64,000 nucleotides of DNA from assembly GCA_002781785.1 (NCBI GenBank), contig PFGC01000037.1, positions 13,589 to 77,588 of the forward strand, read 5' to 3'. The notes beneath the pieces are model-generated. The model saw only the letters and a program-made list of their open reading frames with translations. It ran no database searches and was not told the origin of the DNA. Positions 11,066 to 41,938 of the stretch are shown here, one piece after another (positions within the stretch are counted from its first letter, which is position 1; each line of letters begins with the position of its first letter). The translations under genes and the position numbers were made by a program. This DNA is from Candidatus Kerfeldbacteria bacterium CG15_BIG_FIL_POST_REV_8_21_14_020_45_12 (GTDB taxonomy: Bacteria > Patescibacteriota > Patescibacteriia > UBA9570 > XYC2-FULL-38-9).

Positions 11066-11094
11066 AACCGGGGTGAAGCCGGTTTCTGTTTTAG
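11066..11094 (-). terminator. Terminator-like hairpin between ybaB and recR, possibly an attenuator
   Basis: Minus strand: AACCGG-cttcacc-CCGGTT followed by TTTTTTT, ending 4 nt before the recR ATG. Confidence 0.5.
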
Positions 11095-11396: not shown

Positions 11397-11459
11397 ATCA
11401 GCTGTTATCGAATAATTGATGCTTATTGTATCGGTTTTAACCAATTTTGCAAGTCAGGG

Positions 11460-26605: not shown

Positions 26606-26680
26606 GCCCGCATCGTCTAACGGCTAGGACGCCAGGTTCTCATCCTGGTAATCGGAGTTCGATTCTCCGTGCGGGTACCA
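26606..26680 (+). tRNA. tRNA-Glu (anticodon CTC), CCA encoded
   Basis: GCCCGCA acceptor, ATCGTCTAACGGCTAGGAC D-arm typical of tRNA-Glu, anticodon loop TTCTCAT, T-loop TTCGATT, then ACCA. Confidence 0.9.
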
Positions 26681-26685: not shown

Positions 26686-26717
26686 GCATCACACTAGGTA
26701 AGTGTGATGTTTTTGTT
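26686..26717 (+). terminator. Rho-independent terminator after tRNA-Glu
   Basis: CATCACACT-aggtaa-GTGTGATG then TTTTTGTTT. Confidence 0.8.
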
Positions 26718-26800
26718 TAAAGATTGCTGTTTTTGTGGATTATTTGATCTTTTTTTTAGGTTTATTTATACTTCGGCCACCTCACTCTGTTTGTGGGGTA

Positions 26801-27490
26801 ATGCCGTTGAGGTGTTGTGTGACCTTACTTGATCTTATTCAAAAGTCGTACCCTGGCCTCTCGTTCGAAGATGCTCAGCTTCTGACGATCAGTGATCGAT
26901 GTGAAGCGGTGGCGAGGGGGCGCCGTGTTCCGGTGGTGGCCGATCACCTGGCCTACGTTCGCTCTGGCTTCGTCATGGAGTGCTACGGCGAACCCTGCGG
27001 ATCTGGTCAGTGGTCTCTCTTCCTGGGCACTCAGCTGTTCATGAATCCTGGGGCCTACTTCGGAACGTCTGATCCTGACATCGAGGCGTTGACCAGGACC
27101 AGGGTGCAGTACATCCCGCTCGAGGCGGTGAGGGCTGTGTGTCGACGGTCATCGTACCTGACCACGGTTTTGCAGGGCGGGATCATCGCTCAACGAGACC
27201 GTTTGGCCAGCTCGCTGGCCATGACCGGTCAGTCTGTGGAGGCACGCTTCACTCAGGTTCTGGCTGAAATGGTGATGACGATTGGACTGAGAGATGAGGA
27301 TGGAGTCTTCGTTCCCATCAAGATCAATCGGACTCAGCTGGCTCAGATGGTGGGCTGTAGAACAGAGACGGCCATCAGGGCTTGGAGGAGCTGCGCTGAT
27401 GGTGGTCAAATCATCGAGCGTCTGGAGGGATTCGTGATTCCTCATGACTCTTGCTTCATGGACCTGCTTGAGAAGAGAAGCGTCGCATAG
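26801..27490 (+). CDS. Crp/Fnr-family transcriptional regulator, encoded in a GC-rich island
   Basis: 229 aa; C-terminal helix-turn-helix INRTQLAQMVGCRTETAIRAWRSCADGGQI matches the HTH_Crp pattern, preceded by a cNMP-like beta-roll region. Codon usage is GC3-rich, unlike its neighbours. Confidence 0.65.
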   Translation: MPLRCCVTLLDLIQKSYPGLSFEDAQLLTISDRCEAVARGRRVPVVADHLAYVRSGFVMECYGEPCGSGQWSLFLGTQLFMNPGAYFGTSDPDIEALTRTRVQYIPLEAVRAVCRRSSYLTTVLQGGIIAQRDRLASSLAMTGQSVEARFTQVLAEMVMTIGLRDEDGVFVPIKINRTQLAQMVGCRTETAIRAWRSCADGGQIIERLEGFVIPHDSCFMDLLEKRSVA

Positions 27491-27636
27491 CTCACAGAAC
27501 CCATTCTCTGAAGACACGGTCTCGTGTTGTGTTTTCAGAAAATTGATTCGGTGGGAAATACGTTGCCGTGCTCTGTAAGAGGGGTGCGGCTCTTTTTTTA
27601 GGTACGTACTGAGCTCTTCTGCTATAATGATATTCT

Positions 27637-29139
27637 ATGGTCAGTAAAAGAGCTCACACAAATTATCTACCAACCGTTTTTACTATATTTGGTATTACTG
27701 GTGACCTAGCTAAACGTAAGCTGATTCCAGCTATTTATCACTTGTATTGTCATGGCTTGTTGCCAGAGGAAATTCATTTTGTAGGAGTAGGGCGACGGGA
27801 TTTATCGCTAGGTGATTACGGAGAAATGATTAAGCAAAGCGTAACTTATGCTGAAGGCAAGGTAGACGCAGACAAGCTGGCAAGTTTTGCGGCTCTATTT
27901 TCATATGTTGAAGGTGATATTAAGAGCCCAAAGGCATACGCTGATATTGGACAGGAGATTGCCAAGAGAGATAAAGATTGTGGCCATGGCCATCAGACGG
28001 TATTTTATTTGGCAGTGGCTCCGCAGATGTTTATCAGGATTATTGAGCACTTGAAGGAAGCTAGCTTAACGGGACCTTGTTATGAGCTAGGCATTAAGGG
28101 AAAGATAGTAATTGAAAAACCGTTTGGTCACAGTGTTGAGTCGGCCCGTCAGTTAAGTGAAGCTGTCATGACTTATGCTGACGAAGAGCAGATTTATCGA
28201 ATGGATCATTACCTAGGCAAGGAGACAGTTCAAAATATATTATTGTTTCGATTTACCAATCCAGTTATTAATGATTCTTGGAATCCTGAGGCGATAGATC
28301 ATATTCAAATCACCGCCTCTGAGGATATAGGAGTAGAGGATCGAGCTGGTTATTATGATAGCTCTGGAGCGCTTCGTGACATGATTCAGAGTCATTGTTT
28401 AGCGCTAGCCACTTTAGTGATGATGGATGAGCCAATGAGTTTGAATTCGGCTGATATCCATCGGCGTAAGGTTGAAATGTTGCAAACTTTTTCATTAGAT
28501 TCTAATCCAGCTGAGTCAGCGGTGCGAGCTCAGTACGATGGTTATAGAGCTATAGAAACTGTGGCTGAGCATTCTGTAACGGAAACTTTTGCCGCCATGC
28601 AATTAAAATCTTCTCATCCACGGTGGAAGGATGTACCTATTTTTATTAGGACTGGTAAGCGGATGGCTCAAAAGGAAACCAATATTGCTATTCATTTTGC
28701 ACCATGTAAATCTGATATCTGTAAGGCTGTCGGCATTAGAACAGAACCAAATGTCTTAAATATTCGAGTACAGCCTATGGAAGGAATAGGTTTATTATTG
28801 TATGCTAAGAAACCAGGTTTTTCTATTGAGACTGAGCAGGTCTATATGAATTTTACCTATCAGACTGAATTTACTGATGAACAGCCCTCGCCGTATGAGC
28901 GCTTGATCCATGATGTAATTATTGGTGACCAGTCACTCTTTCCAACCACTGAGGAAGTCATGGAACAATGGCGGATTGTTCAGCCAGTGCTTGACGCATG
29001 GAGTGATCAAGCTTTACCGATGCATAGTTACGCTCCGGGTGAGGATGGTCCGCAAGCAGCTCATGATTTGATAGGTCAGTGGCACGATTCAACTTGGACA
29101 GCAGGTGTGGGAAAACAAATGAATAGTGATGCTCAATGA
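27637..29139 (+). CDS. zwf: Glucose-6-phosphate 1-dehydrogenase
   Basis: GITGDLAKRK NADP site and the MDHYLGKE signature. Confidence 0.9.
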   Translation: MVSKRAHTNYLPTVFTIFGITGDLAKRKLIPAIYHLYCHGLLPEEIHFVGVGRRDLSLGDYGEMIKQSVTYAEGKVDADKLASFAALFSYVEGDIKSPKAYADIGQEIAKRDKDCGHGHQTVFYLAVAPQMFIRIIEHLKEASLTGPCYELGIKGKIVIEKPFGHSVESARQLSEAVMTYADEEQIYRMDHYLGKETVQNILLFRFTNPVINDSWNPEAIDHIQITASEDIGVEDRAGYYDSSGALRDMIQSHCLALATLVMMDEPMSLNSADIHRRKVEMLQTFSLDSNPAESAVRAQYDGYRAIETVAEHSVTETFAAMQLKSSHPRWKDVPIFIRTGKRMAQKETNIAIHFAPCKSDICKAVGIRTEPNVLNIRVQPMEGIGLLLYAKKPGFSIETEQVYMNFTYQTEFTDEQPSPYERLIHDVIIGDQSLFPTTEEVMEQWRIVQPVLDAWSDQALPMHSYAPGEDGPQAAHDLIGQWHDSTWTAGVGKQMNSDAQ

Positions 29140-29205
29140 GACTTGCTTGACAAAGTAAATATTTCAAGTAGTCTCAGTAATATCTAATTCATCCCTCGAC
29201 TGCAT

Positions 29206-29379
29206 ATGGCAGATTATCAGTACAACCGAGAGACGCTCCTGGTTCGCATGAACGCAGGAATCAGTCAGGCTGTTTTTGCTATGGTCCGCTTCATGGTAGG
29301 TGGCCAGAGCGCAGGCGTTCCCGCTGCTGTTATGGCAGAAGATGCGCGTCGGAGTAGGGTGAATCACGTTCAATCGTAG
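29206..29379 (+). CDS. Small GC-rich ORF (57 aa), hypothetical
   Basis: ATG-initiated ORF MADYQYNRETLLVRMNAGISQ... inside a ~240-bp GC-rich patch. A perfect 9-bp inverted repeat and a strong terminator follow. It may instead be a non-coding RNA. Confidence 0.25.
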   Translation: MADYQYNRETLLVRMNAGISQAVFAMVRFMVGGQSAGVPAAVMAEDARRSRVNHVQS

Positions 29380-29390
29380 ATAACGATTGA
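29366..29390. promoter_or_regulatory. Perfect inverted repeat GTTCAATCG-N7-CGATTGAAC (operator-like)
   Basis: 9-bp arms with a 7-bp spacer, overlapping the stop codon of the small ORF. Confidence 0.35.
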
Positions 29391-29405
29391 ACAGAAGTCA
29401 TTAAA

Positions 29406-29433
29406 CCCTCTCCGGCCCCGGTGAGGGTTTTTT
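29406..29433 (+). terminator. Rho-independent terminator
   Basis: CCCTCTCCGG-cc-CCGGTGAGGG then TTTTTT. Confidence 0.8.
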
Positions 29434-29445
29434 AAAATCACAACT

Positions 29446-31221
29446 ATGAAATCATTCAATTCAATACAAACTAATTTACGCTATATTTGGCCATATATTT
29501 GGCGATATCGAAAGTGGTCAGCTCTGGTTATTCTCTTTGTCTTGCTGAAAGAGTTATCGGTACTGGGAGAGCCGTTAATTTATCGTCAGGTCATCCTGGT
29601 CTTTGAATCGTTATTTGCCCTTGAAATTACCCATGACTTAGCTATCCAAAAAACCATCTTCTTAATCATTGGCTTTGTTTGCCTGCAGGGGTTGGTCATT
29701 GTCTCTAACGGTTTGATGTTACATTTTACCAATCGCTTGGATGCTTCAGCTATGCGAGATGGTGCAAACGACTTTGTTGGTAAGGTGCTTAACTTATCAT
29801 TTAGGTTTCACTCCGAACGTAAAACTGGAAAACTAGCCAAGGAATTTGCTCGGGGTGTTAATGGTATTGAGGCATTTCTGGATGCCTTTGTCTTCAACCT
29901 AATACCGTTGTTAATTCGTTTGACTGTAATATTCATTGTCTACGTTGTTATTGAGTGGCGCATTGCTCTGGTTCTGTTGGTTCAAGCTATTGTATTTTGT
30001 GTCTTCACGATTATCGCCTCTATCAAAATGCAGCATCGGCGTGATACCGCTAATTCGTTCGACGATGAAGGTTCAAGAAAGGCGATGGATGCTCTAATGA
30101 ATGCGGAGGTAGTTAAGTACTTTCATCAAGAACAAGAAGAGATAAAGTCATTCAAAAAGACTAGGCAGGTTTGGAAAGACAACAAGCAGTATGAGTGGGA
30201 CGGTTGGAAATGGGTTAGTAGCGGCCAGATTCTGATTAACGTCTCTTCGGTCGTAATACTATTGATGATAGCTATCCCATTACTTATATCTGGAGATATG
30301 GGCCTAGCTAACTTCGTCTTGGTGATCAGTTACCTTGGTTACCTTGTTGGTATCTTGTGGGACTTTCAGCATCACGTTCGTCGTTTGCAAGAAGCTCTAA
30401 CCGATTTAACCGCCTTCTTCAGCTACTTTGGAAAGGAGAATGAAATCTCCGATGCAGCTTCAGCTAAAACATTAGAAGTTAAGCAGGGCTTAATCCGTTT
30501 TGAACAGGTGCAGTTTGCCTACCAGGGAAGTAGTGGAGTGTTTGAGGATCTATCTTTCACAGTGCCGGCTGGAAAGAGTGTTGCGCTGGTTGGTCCATCG
30601 GGAGTTGGTAAGTCAACTATCATAAAAATGTTATATAGGTTTTATGAACCAACTGGCGGGTATATCACGATTGATGGTCAAAACATTAACGAGGTAACCC
30701 AGCAATCATTGAGGCAGCAGTTGTCCATTGTGCCGCAAGAAACAGCGCTGTTTAATGAAACGGTTGCTTACAACATTGCTTACGGTACTAAGGCTGTTAC
30801 CCGAGAACAGATTGAAACAGCGGCTCGCGAGGCCCACGCCGACGAACTGATTGCCAACTTACCACAAGGTTATGATACCTTGGTTGGTGAAAGAGGTGTG
30901 AAGTTGTCAGGTGGGGAGAAGCAGCGTATTGCCATAGCTCGAGCCTTCCTGCGCGACGCGCCAATCCTAGTATTAGACGAAGCTACCTCAAGTTTGGATT
31001 CAGCCTCAGAGGCAGAAATTCAACTGGCGCTTAAAGGCTTAATGAATGGTAGAACCACTCTAATTATTGCTCATCGATTATCGACAATAATGTCGGCCGA
31101 TCTGATAATTGTGCTCAGCGACGGTGGTATTGTTCAACAAGGGACACATGAGGAATTGCTAGAACATGGTGGATTATACCAAAAGCTTTGGGAACTCCAG
31201 GCTGGCGGTTATATCGAATAG
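29446..31221 (+). CDS. ABC transporter permease/ATPase fusion (MsbA-like exporter)
   Basis: 591 aa; 6 TM segments, Walker A GPSGVGKST, signature LSGGEKQR, Walker B ILVLDEATS. Confidence 0.85.
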   Translation: MKSFNSIQTNLRYIWPYIWRYRKWSALVILFVLLKELSVLGEPLIYRQVILVFESLFALEITHDLAIQKTIFLIIGFVCLQGLVIVSNGLMLHFTNRLDASAMRDGANDFVGKVLNLSFRFHSERKTGKLAKEFARGVNGIEAFLDAFVFNLIPLLIRLTVIFIVYVVIEWRIALVLLVQAIVFCVFTIIASIKMQHRRDTANSFDDEGSRKAMDALMNAEVVKYFHQEQEEIKSFKKTRQVWKDNKQYEWDGWKWVSSGQILINVSSVVILLMIAIPLLISGDMGLANFVLVISYLGYLVGILWDFQHHVRRLQEALTDLTAFFSYFGKENEISDAASAKTLEVKQGLIRFEQVQFAYQGSSGVFEDLSFTVPAGKSVALVGPSGVGKSTIIKMLYRFYEPTGGYITIDGQNINEVTQQSLRQQLSIVPQETALFNETVAYNIAYGTKAVTREQIETAAREAHADELIANLPQGYDTLVGERGVKLSGGEKQRIAIARAFLRDAPILVLDEATSSLDSASEAEIQLALKGLMNGRTTLIIAHRLSTIMSADLIIVLSDGGIVQQGTHEELLEHGGLYQKLWELQAGGYIE

Positions 31222-31292
31222 AATTGAGGCGCTCTATTGGTGGGGCGCTTCTTTTCTTTGCCAAAAATGCCTAGTATGGTATGTAGTGTTAT

Positions 31293-32447
31293 ATGAATAC
31301 TGTTAGCAAAGAAATAATTTATCTGGATCATGCTGCTACAACCCCAGTTCGGGAAGAAGTTGCGGCAGCGATGTTGTCCTGGCAGGCAGTAGAATTTGGA
31401 AACCCCTCAAGTCAGTATAGTTTGGGTTATTCAGCGCGGCAGGCGCTTGATGACGCTAGGGCTCAGGTAGCCGCAGCTTTAGGTTGCTCACCGCAAGAGG
31501 TTGTTTTTACCGGCGGTGGAACTGAGAGTGCCAATTTGGCAGTTTTGGGTTCAGCTAGATTTATTGGGCAGGGGAGTGTAGTGACCACTGCTATTGAGCA
31601 TGCTGCCGTTTTGGATAGCTGTCAGCAACTTGAGCGGGAAGGATTTACTCGCAAAATAGTTAAGGTGCCAAAAAACGGAATTGTTGATGCTCACTCAGTC
31701 GCAGCTATGGTGGATGAATCAACGGTGTTGGTGAGTGTGATGTTGGCTAATAATGAAATCGGAACCATTCAACCAGTTTCTAAAATTGTTCAGGCGGTTA
31801 AAGCTAAAAATCCAAAAACGTTAGTTCATACCGATGCTTGCCAGGCTACGGGATCCTTGAGTATTAATGTTGATGAGCTGGGAGTTGATTTGTTAACCTT
31901 AAATTCTAGTAAGATTTATGGTCCAAAGGGAGTTGGCGCTTTGTATGTGAAACGTGGTGTTAAGCTGCAGCCGCTAATGTTTGGTGGCGACCAAGAGCAG
32001 TCCCTGCGGCCAGGTACAGAAAATGTTTCTGGTATTGTCGGATTTGGTTTAGCGGTAGAGCTAGCTGTTGCAGAACGTGAGACTGAGAGTGAACGCCTGA
32101 GCAAATTGCGAGATGAGTTAATTGATGAGCTTATTCAGAAAATTCCAGGAGCAGAGCTAAATGGTGCCCGTGAACCGCGACTGCCCAATAATATTAATAT
32201 ATTTTTTCCAAATATTGATGGTGAAGCGTTGCTGGTGTATCTTAATCAGGCGGGGGTAGCCGCTTCATTAGGGTCGGCTTGTGCCGCCGGATCGCTTGAT
32301 CCGTCACACGTACTGTTGGCACTGGGCTATTCCAAAGCAGATGCTCGTCGTAGTCTACGGCTAACCCTTGGTCGGGCGACTACTAGTCAACAGATTGATA
32401 GAGTAATTAAAATCGTTGTTGATATTATTAACAAAGTGACTCAATAA
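31293..32447 (+). CDS. Cysteine desulfurase (NifS/IscS class I)
   Basis: LDHAATTP N-terminus, pyridoxal-phosphate lysine context SSKIYGPKG, active-site GSACAAGS. Confidence 0.85.
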   Translation: MNTVSKEIIYLDHAATTPVREEVAAAMLSWQAVEFGNPSSQYSLGYSARQALDDARAQVAAALGCSPQEVVFTGGGTESANLAVLGSARFIGQGSVVTTAIEHAAVLDSCQQLEREGFTRKIVKVPKNGIVDAHSVAAMVDESTVLVSVMLANNEIGTIQPVSKIVQAVKAKNPKTLVHTDACQATGSLSINVDELGVDLLTLNSSKIYGPKGVGALYVKRGVKLQPLMFGGDQEQSLRPGTENVSGIVGFGLAVELAVAERETESERLSKLRDELIDELIQKIPGAELNGAREPRLPNNINIFFPNIDGEALLVYLNQAGVAASLGSACAAGSLDPSHVLLALGYSKADARRSLRLTLGRATTSQQIDRVIKIVVDIINKVTQ

Positions 32448-32452
32448 ATATT

Positions 32453-32674
32453 ATGGCTTATTCCGTAGAGGTTATTCGTGAGGCTTGTATCGGCGCTGGT
32501 AGTTGCGCTGTGTTGGCGGCTGGAACCATCGAGATGGACGATGAGAACATTGCTGTTGTCGTTAAACAGAATGGAGATTCTGACGAGGATATTTTGGCGG
32601 CCGCTCAGTCCTGCCCGGTGGACGCGATTATAGTGCGTGACGAGACTGGAAATCAAATTTGGCCAGAGGCTTAG
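32453..32674 (+). CDS. Small single-cluster ferredoxin
   Basis: 73 aa with C..GAGSC....C..CP spacing; sits 6 nt downstream of nifS. Confidence 0.7.
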   Translation: MAYSVEVIREACIGAGSCAVLAAGTIEMDDENIAVVVKQNGDSDEDILAAAQSCPVDAIIVRDETGNQIWPEA

Positions 32675-32698
32675 TTAGTTTTTTTGCACGTACAGACA

Positions 32699-32727
32699 TT
32701 GACGAAATTGTCTTTTTTTGCTACAAT
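32699..32727 (+). promoter_or_regulatory. Strong sigma70-like promoter TTGACG-17-TACAAT
   Basis: Near-consensus hexamers with an exact 17-nt spacer in the AT-rich intergenic DNA after the ferredoxin gene. Confidence 0.55.
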
Positions 32728-32769
32728 AGATACAGAACGTAAATAAAAAGAAAAACAAACAAAAAAGGT

Positions 32770-32880
32770 ATGCAGATCGATCATAGGACCGAGCGCTTGA
32801 TGTTTCGCATCTCTGTGCTCTTTGTCGGGGTGTCTAGCTTGCTAACACTGGCTATGATATCGCCGATGGTAATAGGGTAA
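32770..32880 (+). CDS. Orphan small hydrophobic peptide (36 aa; internal ATG gives 26 aa), possibly a type I toxin-like peptide or sRNA
   Basis: MQIDHRTERLMFRISVLFVGVSSLLTLAMISPMVIG lies between a consensus promoter and a terminator. It was not in the supplied ORF track because it is under 60 aa. Confidence 0.25.
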   Translation: MQIDHRTERLMFRISVLFVGVSSLLTLAMISPMVIG

Positions 32881-32902
32881 GTTATATAAAATAGTCTTAC
32901 CA

Positions 32903-32925
32903 CCCCGCAGTTTTGCGGGGTTTTT
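32903..32925 (+). terminator. Rho-independent terminator
   Basis: CCCCGC-agtttt-GCGGGG then TTTTT. Confidence 0.75.
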
Positions 32926-32968
32926 AGTAAAAAAAAGAAGCCCGGTCGATCGCAGGTGATCGAACGGA

Positions 32969-33499
32969 CTAGTGGCTCGCGAAGCTCAGGCTGGGGCGAG
33001 TAGCGCCGCCAAAGTGCTCGGCGAGCCACGAGCGCATCTTGTCGGTCGGGAAGGGGGCGATGTTGCCAGTTCCCGGATCGCGGACGAGCTGCAGCCAGCC
33101 TTCGGTGTAGGCCCAGTCCCCGGGGAGGACGGGGAAGCTGGCGCGGAAGCGGTGTCCGACAGGGTCGGGAAGCCCGAAGCGAGCGTCTCCGAGGTCGTTC
33201 TGGATGACGGCCATTGCGGAGGTGTTGTCGCCGTACTGGCGCAGGACGGCCACGCAGAGCAGGCAGTCCCAGCAGCGGCCGGGGCCAAGCAGGTCGGGCA
33301 GTCGCCGCCATTCCAGCCGATCGGTGCTCAGGGGTACCGCTGTGTTGGGATGCTCCCATCGGACGATGCCCTGGTGGATGGCGACTGTAATCGGCCACAG
33401 GGTGCCGATGATCGAGTGCGCCCTGAGATCGCGGAGGGCATGGGGTGAGGAGGGGGGCCCTTCGGCGGTGGGCACCCAGGTTGCAGGACGATGCTTCAT
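32969..33499 (-). CDS. Hypothetical protein (177 aa) in a GC-rich island, with a CxxCxxC motif
   Basis: ATG at 33499 with a GGAG ribosome-binding site. The amino-acid composition is balanced (MKHRPATWVP...GRCWDCLLC...WLAEHFGG), whereas overlapping frames are Arg/Pro/Ala low-complexity. GC3-rich codons. Confidence 0.45.
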   Translation of the reverse strand: MKHRPATWVPTAEGPPSSPHALRDLRAHSIIGTLWPITVAIHQGIVRWEHPNTAVPLSTDRLEWRRLPDLLGPGRCWDCLLCVAVLRQYGDNTSAMAVIQNDLGDARFGLPDPVGHRFRASFPVLPGDWAYTEGWLQLVRDPGTGNIAPFPTDKMRSWLAEHFGGATRPSLSFASH

Positions 33500-33614
33500 C
33501 GAGACTCCACGGGTTTGTCGGCTTACTGTCTGCCGAGCTGAGGAAACGAACACCTCAATGGGTGTTGCCTGTATGTATCAAGAATACCCTGGCTCGTCAA
33601 TGATTCGGCCCCTC

Positions 33615-33642
33615 TTGACACTGCAAAATAGGTGAGTATACT
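33615..33642 (+). promoter_or_regulatory. hrcA promoter TTGACA-16-TATACT
   Basis: Consensus -35 box immediately upstream of the CIRCE element. Confidence 0.6.
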
Positions 33643-33646
33643 GCTA

Positions 33647-33673
33647 TTAGCACTCAGCCAATGAGAGTGCTAA
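33647..33673 (+). promoter_or_regulatory. CIRCE operator (HrcA binding site) TTAGCACTC-N9-GAGTGCTAA
   Basis: Perfect match to the canonical CIRCE inverted repeat, 25 nt upstream of hrcA. Confidence 0.9.
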
Positions 33674-33697
33674 ATCAGGCACTAAATCCCTGGAAAT

Positions 33698-34423
33698 ATG
33701 GGAAAAAAAGAACGACAAGAGAACTTACTCCGGGTCATTGTGCAGGAGTATATTGCCACCGCAAAGCCAGTTAGCTCCAAGCAGCTGGTGGAGAGTGGTG
33801 AGTTTGATTGTTCCCCAGCTACTTTGAGGAATGACATGGCTGAGTTAGAGGGCGAGGGCTTTATCGCTCAACCGCATACTTCGGCCGGACGCGTTCCAAC
33901 TGAAAAGGGCTATCAGTACTATATTAAGCACTTTATCGTGCCACAGCAATTAAAGGGTGCGCGAAAAGAGGCGATTGATCAGGCCGTGCAACGTCAGCCG
34001 GATGAGCGACAACTGCTCAAGGTGTTGGCCAAAACGCTAGCTGATCTGACCGACGAGACGGTCGTAATATCAATGTCCGGGCAAAACTATTACTACACTG
34101 GCATTGCGCATATGTTCCGAAAGCCGGAATTTGCTGCCCAAGCCGATTTGCTACAGGAGATTGGTGAAATGTTCGACCAAATCGACGAGGTTATGAAACA
34201 AGTTAACCATTCGGTTAGCCGCACCATGCAGGTCTTGGTTGGTCGGGAAAATCCTTTTTCGCACAACTGTTCAATGATTGTCTCCGAGCATCGCTTGGCA
34301 GACGAACAGGCAGGGGTGTTAGGGATTGTTGGACCGATGCGCATGGACTATGACGCCAACATTGCAATGTTGTCTTATGTCGAATCATTAATGGATGACT
34401 TATACGATGAGTACCGACGATAA
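33698..34423 (+). CDS. hrcA: Heat-inducible transcription repressor HrcA
   Basis: N-terminal winged helix (RVIVQEYIATAKPVSSKQL); CIRCE upstream; grpE-dnaK-dnaJ downstream. Confidence 0.9.
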   Translation: MGKKERQENLLRVIVQEYIATAKPVSSKQLVESGEFDCSPATLRNDMAELEGEGFIAQPHTSAGRVPTEKGYQYYIKHFIVPQQLKGARKEAIDQAVQRQPDERQLLKVLAKTLADLTDETVVISMSGQNYYYTGIAHMFRKPEFAAQADLLQEIGEMFDQIDEVMKQVNHSVSRTMQVLVGRENPFSHNCSMIVSEHRLADEQAGVLGIVGPMRMDYDANIAMLSYVESLMDDLYDEYRR

Positions 34424-34952
34424 TAAAACTTCGCAGGATCCGTTTGATCCAATCGCTGATCAGCCCAACGATGAGGCTGACACACGTAAAACAGCGAAGG
34501 CCAAGAAGAAAGATGAGCTGGTAACTTTAAAGGAGCAGTGCGCCGAGTATCTTGGGGGCTGGCAGCGAGCCAGGGCTGACTACGACAATTTACAGAGAGA
34601 AACCACCCGACGAATCGGCGAAACCATTAGACACGCTAATGAAGAGTTCATTCTTGAGCTACTGCCGATGGCTGATTACTTCTCTTATGCTTTCAAAGGT
34701 GTGCCAGAGGAAGATAGGGGATCAGACTGGCTGACCGGTATTGAGCACATTCAAACTAACTTCATGCGCATTATGGAAAGCCATGGTGTGACACCAATCG
34801 AAACAGTTGGACAGCCCTTTGATCCACATGTGCACGAAGCGCTCGAAGAGGTAGCTGGAGGCGAGAGTGGAATCATTGCCGAGGAAGTAGCTGCGGGGTT
34901 CAAGTTAAACGACAAGGTGATTCGTATCGCCAAAGTCAAAATCTATAAATAA
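34395..34952 (+). CDS. grpE: Nucleotide exchange factor GrpE
   Basis: Long coiled-coil, then C-terminal beta domain (GQPFDPHVHEA...). Overlaps the hrcA 3' end. Confidence 0.9.
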   Translation: MTYTMSTDDNKTSQDPFDPIADQPNDEADTRKTAKAKKKDELVTLKEQCAEYLGGWQRARADYDNLQRETTRRIGETIRHANEEFILELLPMADYFSYAFKGVPEEDRGSDWLTGIEHIQTNFMRIMESHGVTPIETVGQPFDPHVHEALEEVAGGESGIIAEEVAAGFKLNDKVIRIAKVKIYK

Positions 34953-34979
34953 TTACTGAAAATATCTAATACAACCACT

Positions 34980-36944
34980 ATGGGAAAAATTCTAGGAATC
35001 GATCTTGGAACCACGAACTCCTGTGTCGCGATTTTGGAGGGTGGTCAACCAAAGGTCATTGAAAACAAAGAAGGTAACCGTACTACACCTTCTATTGTAG
35101 CAGAGAGTAAAACTGGCGAACTGATCGTTGGACTGGCTGCTAAACGACAAGCGGTAACTAATCCAGAAAATACAGTCTTTTCAGTTAAGCGACTAATTGG
35201 TCGCCGTTGGGAAGACGAAGAAGTTCAAAAAGATGTAAAGCTGATGCCGTATGAGATCAAGCACGAGGGTGATCGCGTGACGGTAAAGATGGGGGAGAAG
35301 GAATATACTCCACAGGAAATCTCTGCAAAGATTTTACAGAAGCTAAAGACAGACGCTGAAGAAAAACTTGGTGAAAAAATTACCGAGGCGGTTATTACTG
35401 TGCCGGCTTATTTTGACGATTCACAGCGTCAGGCCACTAAGGATGCTGGAAAGATCGCTGGTCTGGATGTTAAGCGTATCATCAATGAACCGACAGCGGC
35501 GGCGTTGGCTTACGGATTTGATAAAAAGAAAGACGAAAAAATTATTGTATATGATTTGGGTGGCGGCACCTTTGATGTTTCTGTTCTAGAAGTTGGCTCT
35601 GACACCGTAGAGGTTCGGGCTACTCATGGCGACACTCATTTGGGTGGAGATGACTTCGACCAGATCTTGATTCACTGGATTTTAGAAGAGTACAAGAAGC
35701 AAGAAGGTGTTGATCTAGCCCAGGACAACCTGGCTTTACAGCGTTTAAAATCGGCTGCAGAAAAGGCGAAGATTGAACTGTCTAGTGCTATGGAGACAGA
35801 GATCAACGAGCCATTTATCGCTAACGATCCTTCCAGCGGACCAAAGCATTTGGTCATGAAGATTTCTCGAGCTAAGTTGGAGGAGCTGTGTGCTGATTTG
35901 GTAAAACGAACCTTTGGTCCAGTGGAAGAAGCTTTGAAAGACGCTGGAATGAGCAAGGGAGATATAAACGAAATCGTGCTGGTCGGTGGTCAGACTCGCA
36001 TGCCAATGATTCAACAGCAGGTAGAGGAGTACTTTGGCAAAAAGCCAAACTCCACTGTTAATCCTGACGAAGTTGTGGCCATGGGCGCAGCTGTTCAAGC
36101 TGGAGTACTGCAAGGAGATGTTAAAGATGTCTTACTGCTTGATGTTATTCCATTGTCACTTGGTATTGAAACCTTGGGTGGTGTAGCTACTAAGCTCATC
36201 GAACGTAATACTACTATCCCAACACAGAAACAGCAGATTTTTTCGACTGCCGCTGATAACCAAACTTCAGTTGAAGTACACGTTGTGCAGGGTGAGCGTG
36301 AGTTAGCTAACGATAACAAGTCTCTTGGAAGATTTATTCTCTCTGGCATTCCACCGTCTCCGCGTGGCGTTCCTCAAGTGGAAGTTGCCTTTGATGTGGA
36401 TGCTAACGGTATCTTGAATGTTACCGCTAAGGATAAAGCTACCAACAAAGAACAATCTATTCGGATTGAGGCTTCTAGTGGTTTGAGCGATGACGAGATT
36501 CAAAAAATGACCAAGGATGCTGAAGAGCACGCCGATGAAGATAGAAAGAAGAAGGAGTTAATCGAGTCAAAGAATATCGGTGAGACGATGATCTACACTA
36601 CTGAGAAGGCTTTGAAAGATGCGGAAGAGCACGTGAAGTCAGGTGAGATCAGTCAAGATGATGTAAAAAATATTCAAGACAAGATTGAGGACCTGAAAAA
36701 GAAGTTGGAAGGTGAAGACCTTGAGGCAATTAAAAAAGCTGGTGACGATTTATCAACGGCCGCTCAAAAAATTGGTGAGATTCTCTACGCTAAAGAACAG
36801 GAGAAATCTGGCGCGGAGGCAGGCGAAGGTGCTACTCCAGGCGAAGAAAAAACTGACGACGTGGTTGATGCTGACTTCGAAGAAAAAACAGACAACGAGT
36901 CAGAAGAAAAGTCAGACGATGCGGCGAAGGGTGAAGATAAATAG
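34980..36944 (+). CDS. dnaK: Chaperone DnaK (Hsp70)
   Basis: [22 protein letters not shown] and the full Hsp70 architecture. Confidence 0.97.
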
Positions 36945-36973
36945 TTTACTCTAGGTAAATAAAAACAAACCTT

Positions 36974-37630
36974 ATGAAGAAAGCTCATCTGCTCACCATT
37001 TCACTAATCACAGCTACTGCTTTAATGTATGCAGTTGGAACACAGGCAGTTAGTGATTCGCCAGCTGGATTTGTTGATACGCCACTTGATACCAAGCCAG
37101 TTAAGGCAATTGATAAGGATTCAGGAAAGGGTGTTGTCGTTCTAAAAAATAAACTGACCGGCAAAGAGCTGGAACGATTTACAGCTTTTAGTGGCGGCGG
37201 TGTTGATGCGCGCTTGGCTAACGTTGGTACGAGTGGTGAGCAGAAGGGTGTTTTGGCCATGCAAGAGCAAAAAGGCAAGTTTATGAAGTTGTACACGCGT
37301 GATGGAGAGTTATTAGCCACCCGCAAGGTGTCCAATAAAAAAGTGCATCATGAATACACCGCCGGTAAGTTAGTGGCAGACGATGATGAAAATTACATCG
37401 TAGCCGCGCGCAAAACTGGAAGTGATGATCAGGTTCTGTTGCTAGTTTATAGCTATAATGAAGACAACCGGACACTTGATCGAGTAACTTCCAAAACTGT
37501 AACTGGACTTGATAGCACAGTGATTGATGACGGCTTCGGTCTGATTATTGGTAAAAGGAAGTTGAAGTTAAATGATGAAAAGGGTAATAATCTAGCGACT
37601 CTGGAACTTGATGGTAGGACGTTACAATAA
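36974..37630 (+). CDS. Secreted hypothetical protein inserted between dnaK and dnaJ
   Basis: 218 aa with an N-terminal signal peptide (MKKAHLLTISLITATALMYAVGTQA); no family recognised. Confidence 0.45.
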   Translation: MKKAHLLTISLITATALMYAVGTQAVSDSPAGFVDTPLDTKPVKAIDKDSGKGVVVLKNKLTGKELERFTAFSGGGVDARLANVGTSGEQKGVLAMQEQKGKFMKLYTRDGELLATRKVSNKKVHHEYTAGKLVADDDENYIVAARKTGSDDQVLLLVYSYNEDNRTLDRVTSKTVTGLDSTVIDDGFGLIIGKRKLKLNDEKGNNLATLELDGRTLQ

Positions 37631-37723
37631 TAAGTTAATTAGGCTCGCTGCTTAACGGCGCCACCCCGTCAGTCCAGTTGGGCTGACGGGGTCCCCGTCG
37701 CCTCGCGCGCTCGCAGTAAATTC

Positions 37724-38815
37724 ATGTCTAAAGACTATTACAACATACTCGGGGTGGAGAAGGGCGTTAGTGAAGATGAGCTAAAGAAGGCCTATCGGAA
37801 ACTAGCGCATAAGTATCACCCAGATAAAGAAGGTGGCGACGAAGCCAAATTTAAGGAGGTTAACGAGGCCTATCAGGTTTTGAGTAGCCCAGACAAGCGC
37901 AAAATGTACGACCAGTACGGCGAGGCCGGCGTCAACGGTGCCGCTGGTGGCGGACCAGGCGGAATGAATTGGGAAGACATCATGCGTCAAGGTGGTTTTG
38001 CCGGAGGTGGTCAGGGTGTTGAATTTGACCTAGGAGATATTTTTTCAGAGTTTTTTGGCGGCGGTGGACGCCGAGGTCAAAAACAGCAACAGCGCGGTAG
38101 TGATATTCAGATGGACTTGACCATGACCTTTAAAGAGGCTGCCTTTGGTCTTAAAAAAACCCTTAACGTGTTAAAGGGGTCTACTTGCAGTACTTGTTCT
38201 GGCAATGGTGCCAAGCCTGGTACTCCTATTAAAGAATGTACTACTTGCAAAGGGGCTGGTGTGGTTGAACAATTACAGCGCAGCGTGTTTGGAGCGGTTA
38301 GGTCGCACGTGGCCTGTGAGGCTTGTAAAGGTCGCGGTAAAACTGTCGAGACAGCTTGTGAGACCTGTCATGGAAAGGGCGTTGAACGCAAAGACACTGC
38401 CTTGGAAGTAGACATTCCAGCTGGCATTGATGATGGTCAAACAATTCGTATTACTGGCCAAGGAGAGGCCGGAGAATTTGGCGCACAGTCTGGTGATTTA
38501 TTTGTAACGGTTCATGTTAAATCCCACGATGGCTGGGAGCGCGATGGCGATAATATTTATTCAGAAACAGAAATTCCGTTTGCTACTTTAGTAATGGGTG
38601 GGACTATTATAGTGGATACCCTGGACGGTAAGATGGAAGTAAAAGTACCTAGTGGTACCGGCAGTGGTAAGCAGCTTAGGTTACGCGGAACCGGGGTAAC
38701 CCGTTTGCATGGTGGAGGCCGAGGCGATCACATTATTACCGTTCAAGTTGAGGTGCCTAAAAAAGTTTCGAGTAAGTATAAAAAGATTCTCAAGCAACTG
38801 TCTGAACTAGACTAA
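37724..38815 (+). CDS. dnaJ: Chaperone DnaJ
   Basis: J-domain HPD (KYHPDKE), G/F-rich region, and four CxxCxGxG zinc-finger repeats. Confidence 0.95.
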   Translation: MSKDYYNILGVEKGVSEDELKKAYRKLAHKYHPDKEGGDEAKFKEVNEAYQVLSSPDKRKMYDQYGEAGVNGAAGGGPGGMNWEDIMRQGGFAGGGQGVEFDLGDIFSEFFGGGGRRGQKQQQRGSDIQMDLTMTFKEAAFGLKKTLNVLKGSTCSTCSGNGAKPGTPIKECTTCKGAGVVEQLQRSVFGAVRSHVACEACKGRGKTVETACETCHGKGVERKDTALEVDIPAGIDDGQTIRITGQGEAGEFGAQSGDLFVTVHVKSHDGWERDGDNIYSETEIPFATLVMGGTIIVDTLDGKMEVKVPSGTGSGKQLRLRGTGVTRLHGGGRGDHIITVQVEVPKKVSSKYKKILKQLSELD

Positions 38816-38819
38816 GTAA

Positions 38820-38842
38820 CACCGCCAATCGGCGGTGTTTTT
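38820..38842 (+). terminator. Rho-independent terminator after dnaJ
   Basis: CACCGCC-aatc-GGCGGTG then TTTTT. A second bidirectional hairpin (ATCCC-ctcat-GGGAT flanked by A/T runs) lies at 38849-38878. Confidence 0.8.
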
Positions 38843-38889
38843 ACAAACAAAAAATCCCCTCATGGGATCAATTTTTTTATAGAAAAGAG

Positions 38890-39172
38890 AGGTGGAGCTG
38901 GGTGGGAGGTCGGCCGAAGCTTACCCCCACCCAGCTAGCACTGTTGGTATGATCACTGTGGACTCCCCAGTCCAACGCAGGGCTTCCGAGGCCCTACTCG
39001 CCGGTCCCGCAGGCGTTATCGTTCCTTGCGTGGGGTCTCCAGTCCCACCGATAAAGCCAAGCCAGCTCAGTAATCACGGCTCTGGCCGATGCCCATGCGG
39101 CTCATCGACCAAAGGTCCCTCGTCAACGAGTGACAGCCCTCCAGCTGGTTCGTTAACGTCACCTCTAGCGCC
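38890..39172 (-). ncRNA. Candidate novel structured RNA (~280 nt, GC-rich) with its own promoter; family unassigned
   Basis: On the minus strand, a TTGACT-17-TAGAGT promoter sits at 39179-39207 on plus-strand coordinates. Downstream is a GC-rich region packed with hairpins, ending in a perfect 11-bp stem (AGCTGGGTGGG...CCCACCCAGCT) followed by CAGCTCCACC and a U-rich tract. Every frame gives low-complexity Pro/Ser/Gly or Arg translation. Confidence 0.3.
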
Positions 39173-39213
39173 GTCGGCACTCTATCTGAAGGGCCTTATT
39201 TAGTCAAATATAA

Positions 39214-39270
39214 AAAAAGAGGCGGGTCGATCAGCAGCTCTCCGAAATATTCCAGAGACCGATCGATCCG
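39214..39270 (-). terminator. Terminator hairpin for paralog A (minus strand)
   Basis: Long imperfect hairpin CGGATCGATC...GATCGACCCG followed on the minus strand by CCTCTTTTTTT; it overlaps the stop codon. Confidence 0.5.
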
Positions 39271-40068
39271 CTATTTGTTGCCAGGCGCGGCTGGGCTAGT
39301 GACCAGCACCAGTAGGCCATCACGGTTGGCGCGACAGCCGCCACTGGCCATTGCCTCCCTGACGATGGCTTCCAGCTGATCCGCCACTTGAGGTGATGGA
39401 TCCTCATCCTCATCGTTGATGAAGTAGATTCCACAGATGTAGCTCTCCTGGTCGCCATCATCGACCCCGAGCATGACCCGAGTGCCGATGGGCAGATCCT
39501 CGATGCTGCTCAGACGATCCTGGATGGTTTCGAGCAGTTCAGCCACGGCAATGCCTAGCTCGGCGGTTTCGAGCAGGGGCATGTCCACCTTGCTGTCACC
39601 GGAGAGTTGGATCTTCATGCGGGAGCGTTCAGACCAGTCCTTGATCTGGGCATCGCAGACGATGGTTGCTGCGATCAGGTCGCTCAGGCTTGCGTTGCCG
39701 ATCGGTACAGTCCTAGCGAACGGAAGATCGAGGTACACGTGGAAGCTGTGCTGTCGCCGGTGCTTGAGCCCCAGGGCCTCTACCATCTCGGCGAGATTGA
39801 AGAGCATTTCGACGGCTCGGGGCAGGCAGGCAGGTCCCAGTTCGCCGACCGGCAGCAGGATCAGCATGGTGTCTTCACCATCGAGCGCCACCGGGTTGTT
39901 CGAGTCCATCAGGTCGATGCCTTCCTCGATGAGATCGGCACAGACCTCTTCCAGGGTGTTGGGGAAGGGTTGACCCAGAAGTGAGGTCAGGTGACCTGCC
40001 GAGTCAGTAGCTGTGAACAGGATCGTCACCGATCCGCTTGCTCCAGTGAAGATGTCAGTCGGTGTCAT
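39271..40068 (-). CDS. Unknown-function protein, paralog A of a tandem triad (GC-rich island)
   Basis: 265 aa from the ATG at 40068, which has a ctGGAGGacagATG ribosome-binding site. It shares blocks with B and C (VTILFTATDS.. / ..MLILLPVGELGPA). GC3-rich codons; promoter TTGACT-17-TAAGGT at 40105-40133 on the minus strand. Confidence 0.5.
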   Translation of the reverse strand: MTPTDIFTGASGSVTILFTATDSAGHLTSLLGQPFPNTLEEVCADLIEEGIDLMDSNNPVALDGEDTMLILLPVGELGPACLPRAVEMLFNLAEMVEALGLKHRRQHSFHVYLDLPFARTVPIGNASLSDLIAATIVCDAQIKDWSERSRMKIQLSGDSKVDMPLLETAELGIAVAELLETIQDRLSSIEDLPIGTRVMLGVDDGDQESYICGIYFINDEDEDPSPQVADQLEAIVREAMASGGCRANRDGLLVLVTSPAAPGNK

Positions 40069-40201
40069 CTGTCCTCCAGTAGCACTCACCTTGAGCGCGA
40101 TCTTACCTTAATAGCAAGGGTCGATCTAGTCAATAAAAAAAGAGACCCTACACGCACCTGGAGAGGTGGGTAGGGGTGAGAGAGACTTGCTGCGCCTCTG
40201 C

Positions 40202-40918
40202 TCAGGAGCTGGGGTTGTCCGTGCGGCGCCGGGAACCTCCCGCGCCGAAGCGGCGGAGGAGCTCCAGCAGCGACTCGCTGCCGTCGGTCTGGTCGCGGAA
40301 GATGTCTTCGACGTCGAAGCCGGGGCTGAAGCCGACGAACCGCACTCGGACCAGCGTCGGACCACGCGAGGTGGGATGGCCGCTGTTGAAGACGCCGTCG
40401 ATGGCATCTTTGGCTGCGGCGAGCTCCTTGAGCTCACGGCAGACCCAGGTGGGGTCCGTGAACACCCCGACGCTCGAGGAGACGCGACCGGTGGTGAGCA
40501 GATTGGTGATCCGTCCGAAGCTCAGCCCTCCGAGCAGGGCGAGGGCCCAGCTGACCTCGTCGTTGGAGACCTGCCAGAGATCGGACGGATCGATGGCGAT
40601 GGCCACGTCGGCGAGGTTCTGGTTGGTGACGTTGGCGACGATCTGTCGTCCCGCCATCGTCAGGCGGTTTGCCAGGCCTTCGTCGATCGCCCCCACCGGT
40701 ACGAACATGACCTTGCGGCCAGTCTGGGTGGTGTAGATCGTCGAGGCGGCCAGAGCATCACCGCGGATGCGGCGATGATCGGCGTTGAAGATGGCTTCAG
40801 CCTCGACGTCCTGGTGGAAGCCGAAGAGGGGGACGCGACCGAGGCCGCAGTAGCAGGTGCTGACCAGGATGACGGTCACGGCGGGGAGCTTTCCAGAGAA
40901 CAGGGGACGGGGCTGCAT
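40202..40918 (-). CDS. Unknown-function protein, paralog B of the tandem triad
   Basis: 238 aa; ATG with a GGAGG ribosome-binding site. Blocks AVTVILVSTCY and KVMFVPVGAIDEGLA align with A. Own promoter TTGACA-18-TATTGT (40999-41028, minus strand) and a downstream hairpin plus T-run. Confidence 0.5.
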   Translation of the reverse strand: MQPRPLFSGKLPAVTVILVSTCYCGLGRVPLFGFHQDVEAEAIFNADHRRIRGDALAASTIYTTQTGRKVMFVPVGAIDEGLANRLTMAGRQIVANVTNQNLADVAIAIDPSDLWQVSNDEVSWALALLGGLSFGRITNLLTTGRVSSSVGVFTDPTWVCRELKELAAAKDAIDGVFNSGHPTSRGPTLVRVRFVGFSPGFDVEDIFRDQTDGSESLLELLRRFGAGGSRRRTDNPSS

Positions 40919-41105
40919 GTTGCCTCCAGGCTACAGCTGTGATGTTTGCTCGAAACCGAAACTTTTGAATTTGGGGATTTTACCCCTCGAGCCGCCTGAC
41001 AATACCGGATTAATTTGGTCTTTGTCAAGGGTTTTTAAAAAAAGATCGCGCGGCAGACTCGGAGTCTAGCGCACGCGAAGGTGGCGGGTGTGACCTGATC
41101 CTTCT

Positions 41106-41789
41106 CTAATCGCGGTAGAAGGGGGCCACGTCGATGGCCCAGCCACTGTTCCGCTCGATGGCGGCAAGCAGACGGTCGCCGAGGCGGCCGGCAGCCTTGC
41201 GTGGGTGTCGGATCGTCTGGCTGGTCTTGCGCCAGGTCTCCGCCAGTCGCTCTGACCGCTGCGCCCATGTCAGCCAGCTGCTGTGGATCCAGGCCATATC
41301 CCTGGCCGTCTGGTCGTCCACGACCTCCGGGCAGGTCACGAGCACCTGCGGGGCGAAGGGGGTGTTGCGCCAGCGAGCCATGGTAGCGACGGTCTCCATG
41401 CAGCCCATGATCAGCTGCATCAGGCAGGTGCCTCGCAGCTGGCCGGGGTCGAGTACCAGGCAGGTATGCGTGACCGAGAGGTGCTTCTGAATCAGCAGAG
41501 CTCCCAGGTACTGGCCGATGTGGCGGTAGTACAGGCTGCTCAGGTCACGCCAGTCCTGTCCGAGCCCGACCATGATCAGGGTGGCCGTACCCGAGACGGT
41601 GATCAGGGACATCACGTTGAGCTGGCCGGTGATGTCTGGGAAGCGGACGGCCGCGTCCATGATCGAGTTGAAGTAGCCTTCCGGCAGCTTGTCCGGGCTC
41701 GAGATGAGCACGGGCTGGTTGTTGTCATCGCGGCCCGTGAAGACGACGACGAAGCGGGTTGGTGCCAGGGTGAAAGGAACGGGGAGCAT
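41106..41789 (-). CDS. Unknown-function protein, paralog C of the tandem triad
   Basis: 228 aa from the ATG at 41789 (GGAGGcagtacATG). Blocks TRFVVVFTGRDD and VMSLITVSGTA resemble A and B. Own promoter TTGACC-17-TACACT (41843-41871, minus strand), divergent from the 41939 gene. Confidence 0.5.
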   Translation of the reverse strand: MLPVPFTLAPTRFVVVFTGRDDNNQPVLISSPDKLPEGYFNSIMDAAVRFPDITGQLNVMSLITVSGTATLIMVGLGQDWRDLSSLYYRHIGQYLGALLIQKHLSVTHTCLVLDPGQLRGTCLMQLIMGCMETVATMARWRNTPFAPQVLVTCPEVVDDQTARDMAWIHSSWLTWAQRSERLAETWRKTSQTIRHPRKAAGRLGDRLLAAIERNSGWAIDVAPFYRD

Positions 41790-41887
41790 GTACTGCCTCC
41801 AGTACGTCAGGGTGGTGCCGGCAGAAACTACCAAGCCGCCGCAGTGTATCCAAATATTTATTATAGGTCAACGCTTATTGTTAAATA

Positions 41888-41916
41888 TCTAACTTTGTGG
41901 TATAATTATTTTAGAA
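41888..41916 (+). promoter_or_regulatory. Promoter TTGTTA-17-TATAAT for the membrane protein, divergent from the paralog C promoter
   Basis: Consensus -10 box and 17-nt spacer. Confidence 0.5.
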
Positions 41917-41938
41917 AAAAAATCATTCGCAACTAGCG

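Follow-up and report, generated by a model that had tools for sequence, protein, structure and literature searches.

How do short GC-rich patches come to lie in the chromosome of a bacterium of much lower GC content, and are they native to it or brought in from elsewhere? The question arises in Candidatus Kerfeldbacteria bacterium CG15_BIG_FIL_POST_REV_8_21_14_020_45_12, a groundwater member of the Candidate Phyla Radiation (CPR), where a stretch of 64,000 nucleotides (assembly GCA_002781785.1, contig PFGC01000037.1, positions 13,589 to 77,588; hereafter the window) bears such patches between its housekeeping genes. We found that the patches are lineage-specific insertions made of seven autonomous units, and that they hold orphan genes with a common codon signature. 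With a probability of about 0.55, we read them as moron-like cassettes of horizontal origin that derive from an unsampled GC-rich pool and entered by integrase-independent recombination. Gene gain is considered rare in symbiotic CPR genomes, most of whose lineages have no known host. Individually wired orphans of foreign composition offer a handle on how genes are gained and expressed without the machinery of mobile elements, and their codon signature could serve as a fingerprint of the donor (host, virus or plasmid) in the Crystal Geyser data.

We scanned the GC content of the window with a 200-nt profile, a 1-kb profile and a segment scan. On a background of 43.5% GC (standard deviation of 0.064 among 150-nt windows), the only long stretches with at least 55% GC lie at positions 26801-27327, 32884-33616 and 38852-41881, apart from two trivial ones of about 250 nt. 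They correspond to three strong patches at 26.8-27.5, 32.95-33.55 and 38.9-41.85 kb, which we call islands 1, 3 and 4. Their GC content ranges from 55 to 67% and, when they are pooled, equals 61.0% over 4,363 nt. The initial annotation, made from the sequence alone, had listed four patches; three of them are strong, and the fourth (island 2, 29.2-29.44 kb) is marginal, with a peak of 52% GC in 200-nt windows.

The composition of the islands follows the codon structure of the genes that they contain. The gene of island 3 (isl3, 32969-33499, minus strand) has 67% GC, with 0.68, 0.55 and 0.82 at the first, second and third codon positions (GC1, GC2 and GC3). The corresponding values in island 4, where all three protein genes lie on the minus strand, are 66% with 0.65, 0.49 and 0.86 for i4b (40202-40918), 65% with 0.62, 0.47 and 0.87 for i4a (41106-41789), and 59% with 0.66, 0.41 and 0.71 for i4c (39271-40068). 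The gene of island 1 (isl1, 26801-27490, plus strand) has about 56% GC, with 0.58, 0.47 and 0.66. The period-3 asymmetry of GC is above that of 2,000 out of 2,000 shuffled sequences for isl3, i4a, i4b and i4c, and is significant also for isl1 (P = 0.0005). Taken together, the position-specific GC and the period-3 signal of these open reading frames (ORFs) form the pattern of real genes from a GC-rich genome. Codons ending in C are dominant in isl3, i4a, i4b and i4c (fraction of C at third positions, C3, 0.43-0.61); in isl3, i4a and i4b, C3 is 0.53-0.61, with 0.57 in isl3 and 0.61 in i4b, and GC3 is 0.82-0.87, compared to a GC3 of about 0.36-0.43 in host genes. The encoded proteins are poor in lysine (1.6% versus 6.7% in host genes) and rich in arginine (7.5% versus 4.2%), and are enriched in proline, tryptophan and cysteine as well. 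As estimated from GC3 and amino-acid usage, this would be the usage of a genome with about 65-70% GC. The common compositional signature proposed in the initial annotation is thus borne out by the C-ending codons and by lysine usage, and the values given there (about 60-68% GC with strong GC3 bias) apply to isl3, i4a and i4b and are weaker for i4c and isl1. We also considered that the patches might be genes of ribosomal or other structured RNAs, as in a thermophile, and rejected it given the strong period-3 coding signal and the result of Rfam, which together with ARAGORN returned three tRNAs as the only RNAs of the window.

The patches could also have been an artifact, and the initial annotation had raised the alternative of a chimera formed in assembly or scaffolding with a high-GC organism. 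The exact DnaJ is encoded on 15 contigs, always with island 4 beside its gene; these contigs represent at least nine samples, in assemblies from ENA (MEGAHIT), JGI and Logan. Nine of these loci were compared to the window and are 100% identical to it through the island junctions, except for a single mismatch in one of them (L160). The island proteins also led to four Logan and JGI contigs (two SRA runs, one JGI sample), and these match the window at 100% identity over the island borders. Identical junctions in independent assemblies made by three pipelines exclude, at the assembly level, chimerism with a co-assembled high-GC organism. The islands genuinely belong to the chromosome of a single clonal population of Candidatus Kerfeldbacteria in the Crystal Geyser groundwater.

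We then compared the window with related CPR loci, which were collected by a genome scan with DnaJ and inspected for synteny by aligning the window genes onto them with tblastn. In one of these loci (L009), the homolog of the membrane-protein gene at 41939-42628 of the window follows dnaJ after 140 bp and island 4 is missing; in another (L010), the order dnaJ, membrane-protein gene, dus and cysS is that of the window minus island 4. At the site of island 1, locus L005 has gap, the tRNA-Glu gene and then directly an ABC-transporter gene. The closest relative that we found (GCA_054014515.1, loci L070 and L161) shares 67-91% identity in the flanking proteins (91% in DnaK, 72% in DnaJ and about 76% in most others). 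Its zwf gene lies 82 bp after tRNA-Glu, with island 1 absent, and between fdx and hrcA other genes of host-like composition replace island 3. The islands are therefore lineage-specific insertions. As the initial annotation had stated, they sit in gaps between intact, syntenic housekeeping genes and disrupt none of them, and these gaps are empty in the relatives. Its further statement that no integrase or transposase is left agrees with our search by Pfam and inspection, which detected neither in the 64-kb window.

The islands resolve into seven autonomous units, namely five protein genes (GC3 0.66-0.87), one small ORF and one non-coding RNA of about 290 nt. Each unit is closed by an intrinsic terminator, that is, a hairpin followed by a run of T, and a consensus-like promoter of the sigma70 type, TTGAC(N17)TAnnnT, is found upstream of six of the seven; the promoter of island 2 is unconvincing. 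Morons are defined by their own promoter and terminator and by deviating GC content (PMC3594210), and the first of these traits, an own promoter and an own factor-independent terminator around one gene, is present in six of the seven units. When nine terminators were folded, two of them from L070, eight had z-scores between -2.7 and -5.3, and that of island 1 had a z-score of -1.1.

Islands 1 and 3 are single units with the same build as those of island 4. In island 1, which adjoins the tRNA-Glu gene (26606-26680), a promoter-like site (TTGATC N17 TATACT, 26744-26776, plus strand) lies 64 nt downstream of the tRNA and precedes the 229-codon gene isl1; the unit ends with the weakest of the folded terminators, a 10-bp stem followed by T7 (27565-27599, plus strand). 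In island 3, the promoter-like site (TTGACG N17 TACATA, 33568-33600, minus strand) is divergent from the hrcA promoter, a GGAG ribosome-binding site stands upstream of the 176-codon orphan isl3, and the terminator lies at 32929-32967 (minus strand, z-score -3.8). Island 2 is a weak member of the set. It consists of a 57-codon ORF on the plus strand (29206-29379) with about 55% GC, a borderline period-3 signal (P = 0.04) and no Pfam match, and ends at a terminator at 29403-29433 (plus strand, z-score -3.7).

Island 4 is a series of four consecutive units on the minus strand. Each unit ends with a GC-rich hairpin and a run of seven T (CTCTTTTCT in the RNA unit); the TTGAC-type -35 element begins 1-10 nt past the preceding T-run and the -10 element lies 17-18 nt further. 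In the three protein units a GGAGG ribosome-binding site follows, and then ATG. The first unit comprises the promoter TTGACC N17 TACACT (41839-41871), the 227-codon gene i4a and a terminator at 41037-41076 (z-score -3.0). The second begins 8 nt past the preceding T-run with the promoter TTGACA N18 TATTGT (40995-41028), carries the 238-codon orphan i4b and ends with a terminator at 40135-40176, which was also folded. The third has a promoter-like site with a weak -10 element (TTGACT N17 TAAGGT, 40102-40133) that is absent from the list of the promoter scanner, the 265-codon acidic orphan i4c and a terminator at 39212-39270 (z-score -2.9). The fourth starts from the promoter TTGACT N17 TAGAGT (39176-39207) and gives a predicted transcript of about 290 nt with about 60% GC (38881-39175), which closes with a strong terminator hairpin at 38881-38935. 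All of these features lie on the minus strand.

The initial annotation had described the promoters and terminators as a layer of host-like, AT-rich sequence around each gene. The own terminators are found in all seven units and the promoters in six; the separate host-like layer is not, as the AT-rich parts amount to only about 35 nt each, composed of the T-run and the promoter, and the 5' and 3' untranslated regions are as GC-rich as the ORFs. The control elements could therefore equally have arrived together with the cassette.

In the transcript at 38881-39175, each of the three frames is interrupted by stop codons and a period-3 signal is lacking (P = 0.14); its fold has a z-score of -4.6, and none of 200 shuffled sequences is as stable. 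No Rfam family matched it, the best hit (E = 0.08) falling on the adjacent terminator and not on the RNA, and nhmmer detected no homolog in any of the fetched loci. Judged by its predicted fold, it is a candidate structured RNA, to which we assign no family.

Public gene calls disagree within the islands. In place of the minus-strand genes, antisense ORFs of 258, 217 and 158 codons on the plus strand (40166-40942, 41283-41936 and 32972-33448) are annotated in several assemblies, and the NCBI entry for i4a is a truncated version of only 104 residues (PIW36916.1/PJA92998.1). We place these island genes on the minus strand because the promoters, ribosome-binding sites, terminators, a homolog of i4a (P0021, see below) and a fold model support it. 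Calls that are truncated or on the wrong strand hide the island genes from comparative analyses.

The sequences next to the islands are of a different kind. The genes hrcA, grpE, dnaK, ORF218 and dnaJ lie close together on a single strand, in what looks like an ordinary operon. ORF218 (36974-37630, plus strand), between dnaK and dnaJ inside this heat-shock operon, encodes a secreted-looking protein of 218 residues; the arrangement is kept in L070 (67% identity) and in L007 (41%), and its UniRef label is 'Phytase-like domain-containing'. Beside island 3, a 36-codon ORF of host-like composition (32770-32880, plus strand) encodes a hydrophobic peptide (MQIDHRTERLMFRISVLFVGVSSLLTLAMISPMVIG) between a TTGACG/TACAAT promoter of its own and a strong terminator. 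At the same place L070 has an unrelated ORF of 39 codons.

Where do the island genes come from? The initial annotation had proposed best-hit taxonomy as a check, and we searched four of the five island proteins in this way. With i4b, isl1 and i4c as queries, a word-index search of 5.8 billion protein clusters returned self matches only. An exhaustive HMMER search with i4a over 1.84 billion representatives yielded a single relative, P0021 from the CPR relative (E = 9e-18). The tested island proteins have no significant match in 50,697 phage records, 72,556 plasmids (tblastn) or IMG/VR; in particular, isl3 has no phage or plasmid match, i4b no plasmid match and i4c no match to phage or viral contigs. 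Neither PHROGs, PADLOC nor NCBIfam assigned a family to the island proteins, and isl3 has no Pfam match either. We rejected the idea that they are defence systems, as PADLOC returned nothing. All-against-all BLASTP detected no paralogy among them. When the i4a/P0021 profile was aligned with hhalign to i4b, i4c and a 212-residue protein of L070, E-values were 0.18-0.24, and an 81-column alignment with i4c is suggestive and not significant.

Two of the proteins can be placed with reservations. The isl1 protein has hits to HTH_Crp_2 of Pfam (E = 6e-5, 23.4 bits with a cutoff of 27), cNMP_binding (E = 0.08) and CRP of NCBIfam (E = 0.008), and weak colinear matches over residues ~96-211 to 12 solved Crp/Fnr chains. 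It is probably a very divergent Crp/Fnr-like regulator, below the thresholds of the families. The model of i4a, built from a two-sequence alignment with a mean predicted local distance difference test (pLDDT) of 63, has a three-layer alpha/beta/alpha fold that superposes on known macro and Peptidase_M17_N members. The sequence matches neither Pfam Macro, Peptidase_M17_N, NCBIfam nor PDB entries and lacks a catalytic M17 domain. With medium confidence, we consider i4a a macro-like protein, similar in its predicted fold to the N-terminal domain of M17 aminopeptidases. That it could be a copy of the N-terminal domain of the host PepA was rejected, as the two have no sequence similarity. The single-sequence AlphaFold2 model of isl3 (pLDDT 35) was unusable.

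These searches bear on the donor that the initial annotation had suggested, a high-GC host such as Actinomyces, on which Saccharibacteria-type epibionts grow, either as the source of the genes or as the partner in a chimeric assembly. The codon and amino-acid usage of the islands does resemble that of high-GC Gram-positive genomes, and the weak Crp matches of isl1 include mycobacterial Crp structures (E ~0.5). However, the organism is a groundwater Kerfeldbacteria and not an oral Saccharibacterium, no Actinobacterial or other homolog of the searched proteins beyond P0021 turned up in up to 15 billion proteins, the sole plasmid match is a non-significant one to Streptomyces (E = 0.5), and, one mismatch aside, the junctions are the same in the nine loci compared from independent assemblies. 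We regard this origin as extremely improbable.

The one homolog found, P0021, aligns to i4a over its full length with 30% identity (E = 8e-27) and occupies the same position in L070, where it adjoins the membrane-protein gene divergently and faces dnaJ. Between the window and L070, the i4a unit has kept both promoter hexamers (-35 and -10) as well as the bases that are transcribed first. The terminator that follows P0021 in L070 (GCGTGTAGGG..CTTTTTTTA) is of the type that follows i4b in the window. The island of L070 contains two genes, with 71% and 67% GC and a GC3 of 0.88 and 0.86, in a genome of 52% GC; the second gene is unrelated to i4b and i4c. The islands of the two species have near-identical codon preferences, unlike either host (C3 0.50-0.61 and fraction of G at third positions 0.25-0.36), and favour GCC, ACC, AGC, CGC, GGC and CTG/CTC. 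According to the initial annotation, its reading would be refuted by uniform coverage and read-pair support together with closest homologs in CPR genomes of similar GC content. This holds by half, as the only homolog does belong to a second CPR genome and is there again a GC-rich gene of an island.

L070 also retains a footprint of recombination. At 10993-11039, a relic of 47 nt matches the 3' end of dnaJ (11875-11921) at 89% identity (E = 1e-10); it spans the last ~19 codons and the stop codon and has an insertion of 15 nt. Between the relic and the functional end of dnaJ lies one GC-rich unit of about 825 bp, with a promoter, a 212-codon gene and a terminator. Such a pattern is what a single crossover of the chromosome with incoming DNA that bears a fragment of the dnaJ end would leave, whether by Campbell-type, attachment (att)-type or homology-anchored illegitimate recombination.

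The islands might also be what remains of a prophage, a plasmid or an integrative and conjugative or mobilizable element that lost its integrase and structural genes, island 4 being a tandem accretion at an att site at the dnaJ end. The dnaJ repeat around the L070 cassette resembles an attL/attR pair, island 1 adjoins a tRNA gene, the four units of island 4 stand in tandem on the same strand, and moron-like architecture is typical of temperate phages (PMC3594210). Set against this, no recombinase, replication, structural or transfer gene was detected in or near any island, the phage, plasmid and PHROG searches gave no match, and the window has no att-like repeats. A coupling ATPase similar to VirD4/TraG (46778-49318, plus strand; T4SS-DNA_transf and TrwB_AAD_bind domains) lies 5 kb from island 4. 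No relaxase or other transfer gene lies near it; it has host composition, is kept at the same place in L070, and is of a class found widely on the chromosomes of Patescibacteria (PMC12102498). A decayed element is in our view a quite unlikely explanation. We also noted a perfect direct repeat of 11 nt, TTTTTTTAGGT, at 26751-26761 and 27593-27603, which brackets the unit of island 1; its two copies are 842 bp apart. The repeat might reflect duplication of a target within the T-run of the terminator, and is not significant when compared to shuffled sequences (P ~0.1).

Horizontal acquisition is the most economical reading of these data. In this scenario the cassettes would have been acquired one unit after another from a GC-rich pool that is unsampled in public data. 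Recombination that requires no integrase encoded by the element would have fixed them in hot spots between genes, on the 3' side of the conserved tRNA-Glu, fdx/hrcA and dnaJ. As candidate routes, DNA would be taken up and then enter the chromosome by homologous (Campbell-type) recombination or by homology-facilitated illegitimate recombination. Natural competence has been demonstrated in cultivated CPR (PMC10187176), which would open an integrase-free route in keeping with the footprint in L070. Once in place, the cassettes may act like the morons of phages, as accessory genes expressed independently of the surrounding operons.

Several observations weigh against this reading. No island protein has a homolog outside the clade, which is odd for a recent cellular donor at a deeply sequenced site. 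Every unit is a neat, complete gene, and random illegitimate capture alone would not yield such units. The islands of the window are surrounded by no significant direct repeats or gene-end relics, and the recombination route proposed for them is extrapolated from L070. Finally, i4a and P0021 are 30% identical among flanking proteins that are 67-91% identical, and yet GC3 is 0.87-0.88 in both, the host genomes having 44% and 52% GC. Under the amelioration described by Lawrence and Ochman, the synonymous sites of an inherited foreign gene drift towards the composition of the host. Either the coding part has been repeatedly replaced in both lineages from a diverse GC-rich pool, or high GC is maintained locally.

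The second option leads to another explanation, in which the islands are a resident class of native, fast-evolving accessory genes whose GC content is kept high locally, for example by GC-biased gene conversion at recombination hot spots or by selection on the transcript or the DNA. The shared locus, promoter hexamers and initial transcribed sequence of i4a and P0021 fit this well, and so does a GC3 of about 0.87 with near-identical codon preference despite saturating divergence. The margin over the host is similar in both genomes (44% versus 61-66% in one and 52% versus 67-71% in the other), homologs are confined to the clade, and high GC spans the whole transcript, including the untranslated regions and the non-coding RNA, and thus goes beyond codons. 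On the other hand, an excess of 45 points in GC3 in single genes is produced by no known bacterial process, and the closest relative lacks isl1 and isl3, so that these are gains rather than ancient residents. Moreover, the lysine content of 1.6% points to a long evolution under a genome-wide GC bias, and the population is clonal at these loci, with no sign of ongoing allele exchange. We consider local maintenance unlikely, although a GC3 of about 0.87 at one locus in two diverged species would be, if repeated replacement is not its cause, an unusually clean case for non-mutational forces on base composition.

To see how far the islands extend, we walked the flanks of the window for 8 kb on the left and 10 kb on the right. 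About 7 kb past the right end there is a further cassette (L163, 18346-18681, minus strand), a monocistronic orphan with the codon signature of the islands, which encodes a predicted membrane protein of 111 residues with 64.6% GC, GC3 0.84 and C3 0.51. It has a GGAGG site and a terminator, and lies between a Ser/Thr kinase gene and pepA, the gene of the host M17 aminopeptidase. When 1.95 Mb of sequence around dnaJ genes of CPR was scanned, a GC3 above 0.8 was seen in the islands of the window and of L070 only, and milder GC patches of single genes are found in the next-closest relatives, L005 and L006, and in a few other loci. The patches in L006 (6952-7659, plus strand, and 10712-11569, minus strand) and in L005 (18105-18962, plus strand) have 55-60% GC and a GC3 of 0.66-0.78 in loci of 43-46% GC, and include an orphan gene for a secreted-looking protein. 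The clade may thus show the phenomenon more widely in a milder form. A metagenome scan for closer relatives that used universal J-domain motifs as patterns gave a best match of 51% identity. Genes of ordinary composition turn over at these intergenic sites as well: in L161, gap and tRNA-Glu are separated by an orphan of 515 residues with host-like composition (2404-3951, plus strand), at a place that is empty in the window.

A broader and quite tentative proposal, which we think improbable as it stands, is that this clade hosts a new kind of integrase-less single-gene cassette of 0.3-0.95 kb, made of a promoter, a ribosome-binding site, an ORF or RNA, and a terminator. Such cassettes would either come from a GC-rich pool that is absent from public data (an unsampled replicon, virus or host) or be kept GC-rich locally. 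They would undergo recurrent turnover on the 3' side of conserved genes, the dnaJ site among them in species with core proteins of only about 75% identity, and would make up about 5% of the genome examined.

How do the islands compare with systems already described? Integron cassettes are, like the units described here, small single-gene modules in one orientation, each closed by an imperfect palindrome. They are however normally promoterless, whereas window units carry a promoter, and the window contains neither intI nor attI. The palindromes and T-runs of the window look like ordinary intrinsic terminators, and inspection of the unit junctions by eye revealed no attC-like consensus, only the T-run and TTGAC being in common.

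Classical genomic islands, of which hundreds acquired by horizontal gene transfer have been reported in groundwater Patescibacteria (PMC12455944), share with the window islands the atypical composition, the patchy lineage-specific presence, the sites at hot spots or, for island 1, beside a tRNA gene, and the hypothetical genes. The window islands differ in their size of 0.7-3 kb, in having no integrase and no significant direct repeats, in that each gene is separately wired for transcription, in having no traceable donor, and in the extreme GC3 at one locus in two long-diverged species. The att-type repeat from the end of a target gene was found for one cassette of L070 and for none in the window.

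The closest likeness is to the morons of HK97/HK022-type phages. These are also single genes with their own promoter and factor-independent terminator, placed between genes that are adjacent in relatives, and their GC content differs from that of their neighbours, as here with 61% and 43.5%. The differences lie in the setting and in the direction of the bias. The window units stand among the ribosomal, chaperone and central-metabolism genes of a CPR chromosome and not in a phage or prophage, as judged by the housekeeping neighbours and by the lack of PHROG, phage or IMG/VR matches; their GC content is above that of the host rather than below, several of them lie in tandem, and one encodes an RNA. 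We would class the island units as moron-like genomic islets, probably acquired horizontally, in a chromosomal variant that is specific to CPR.

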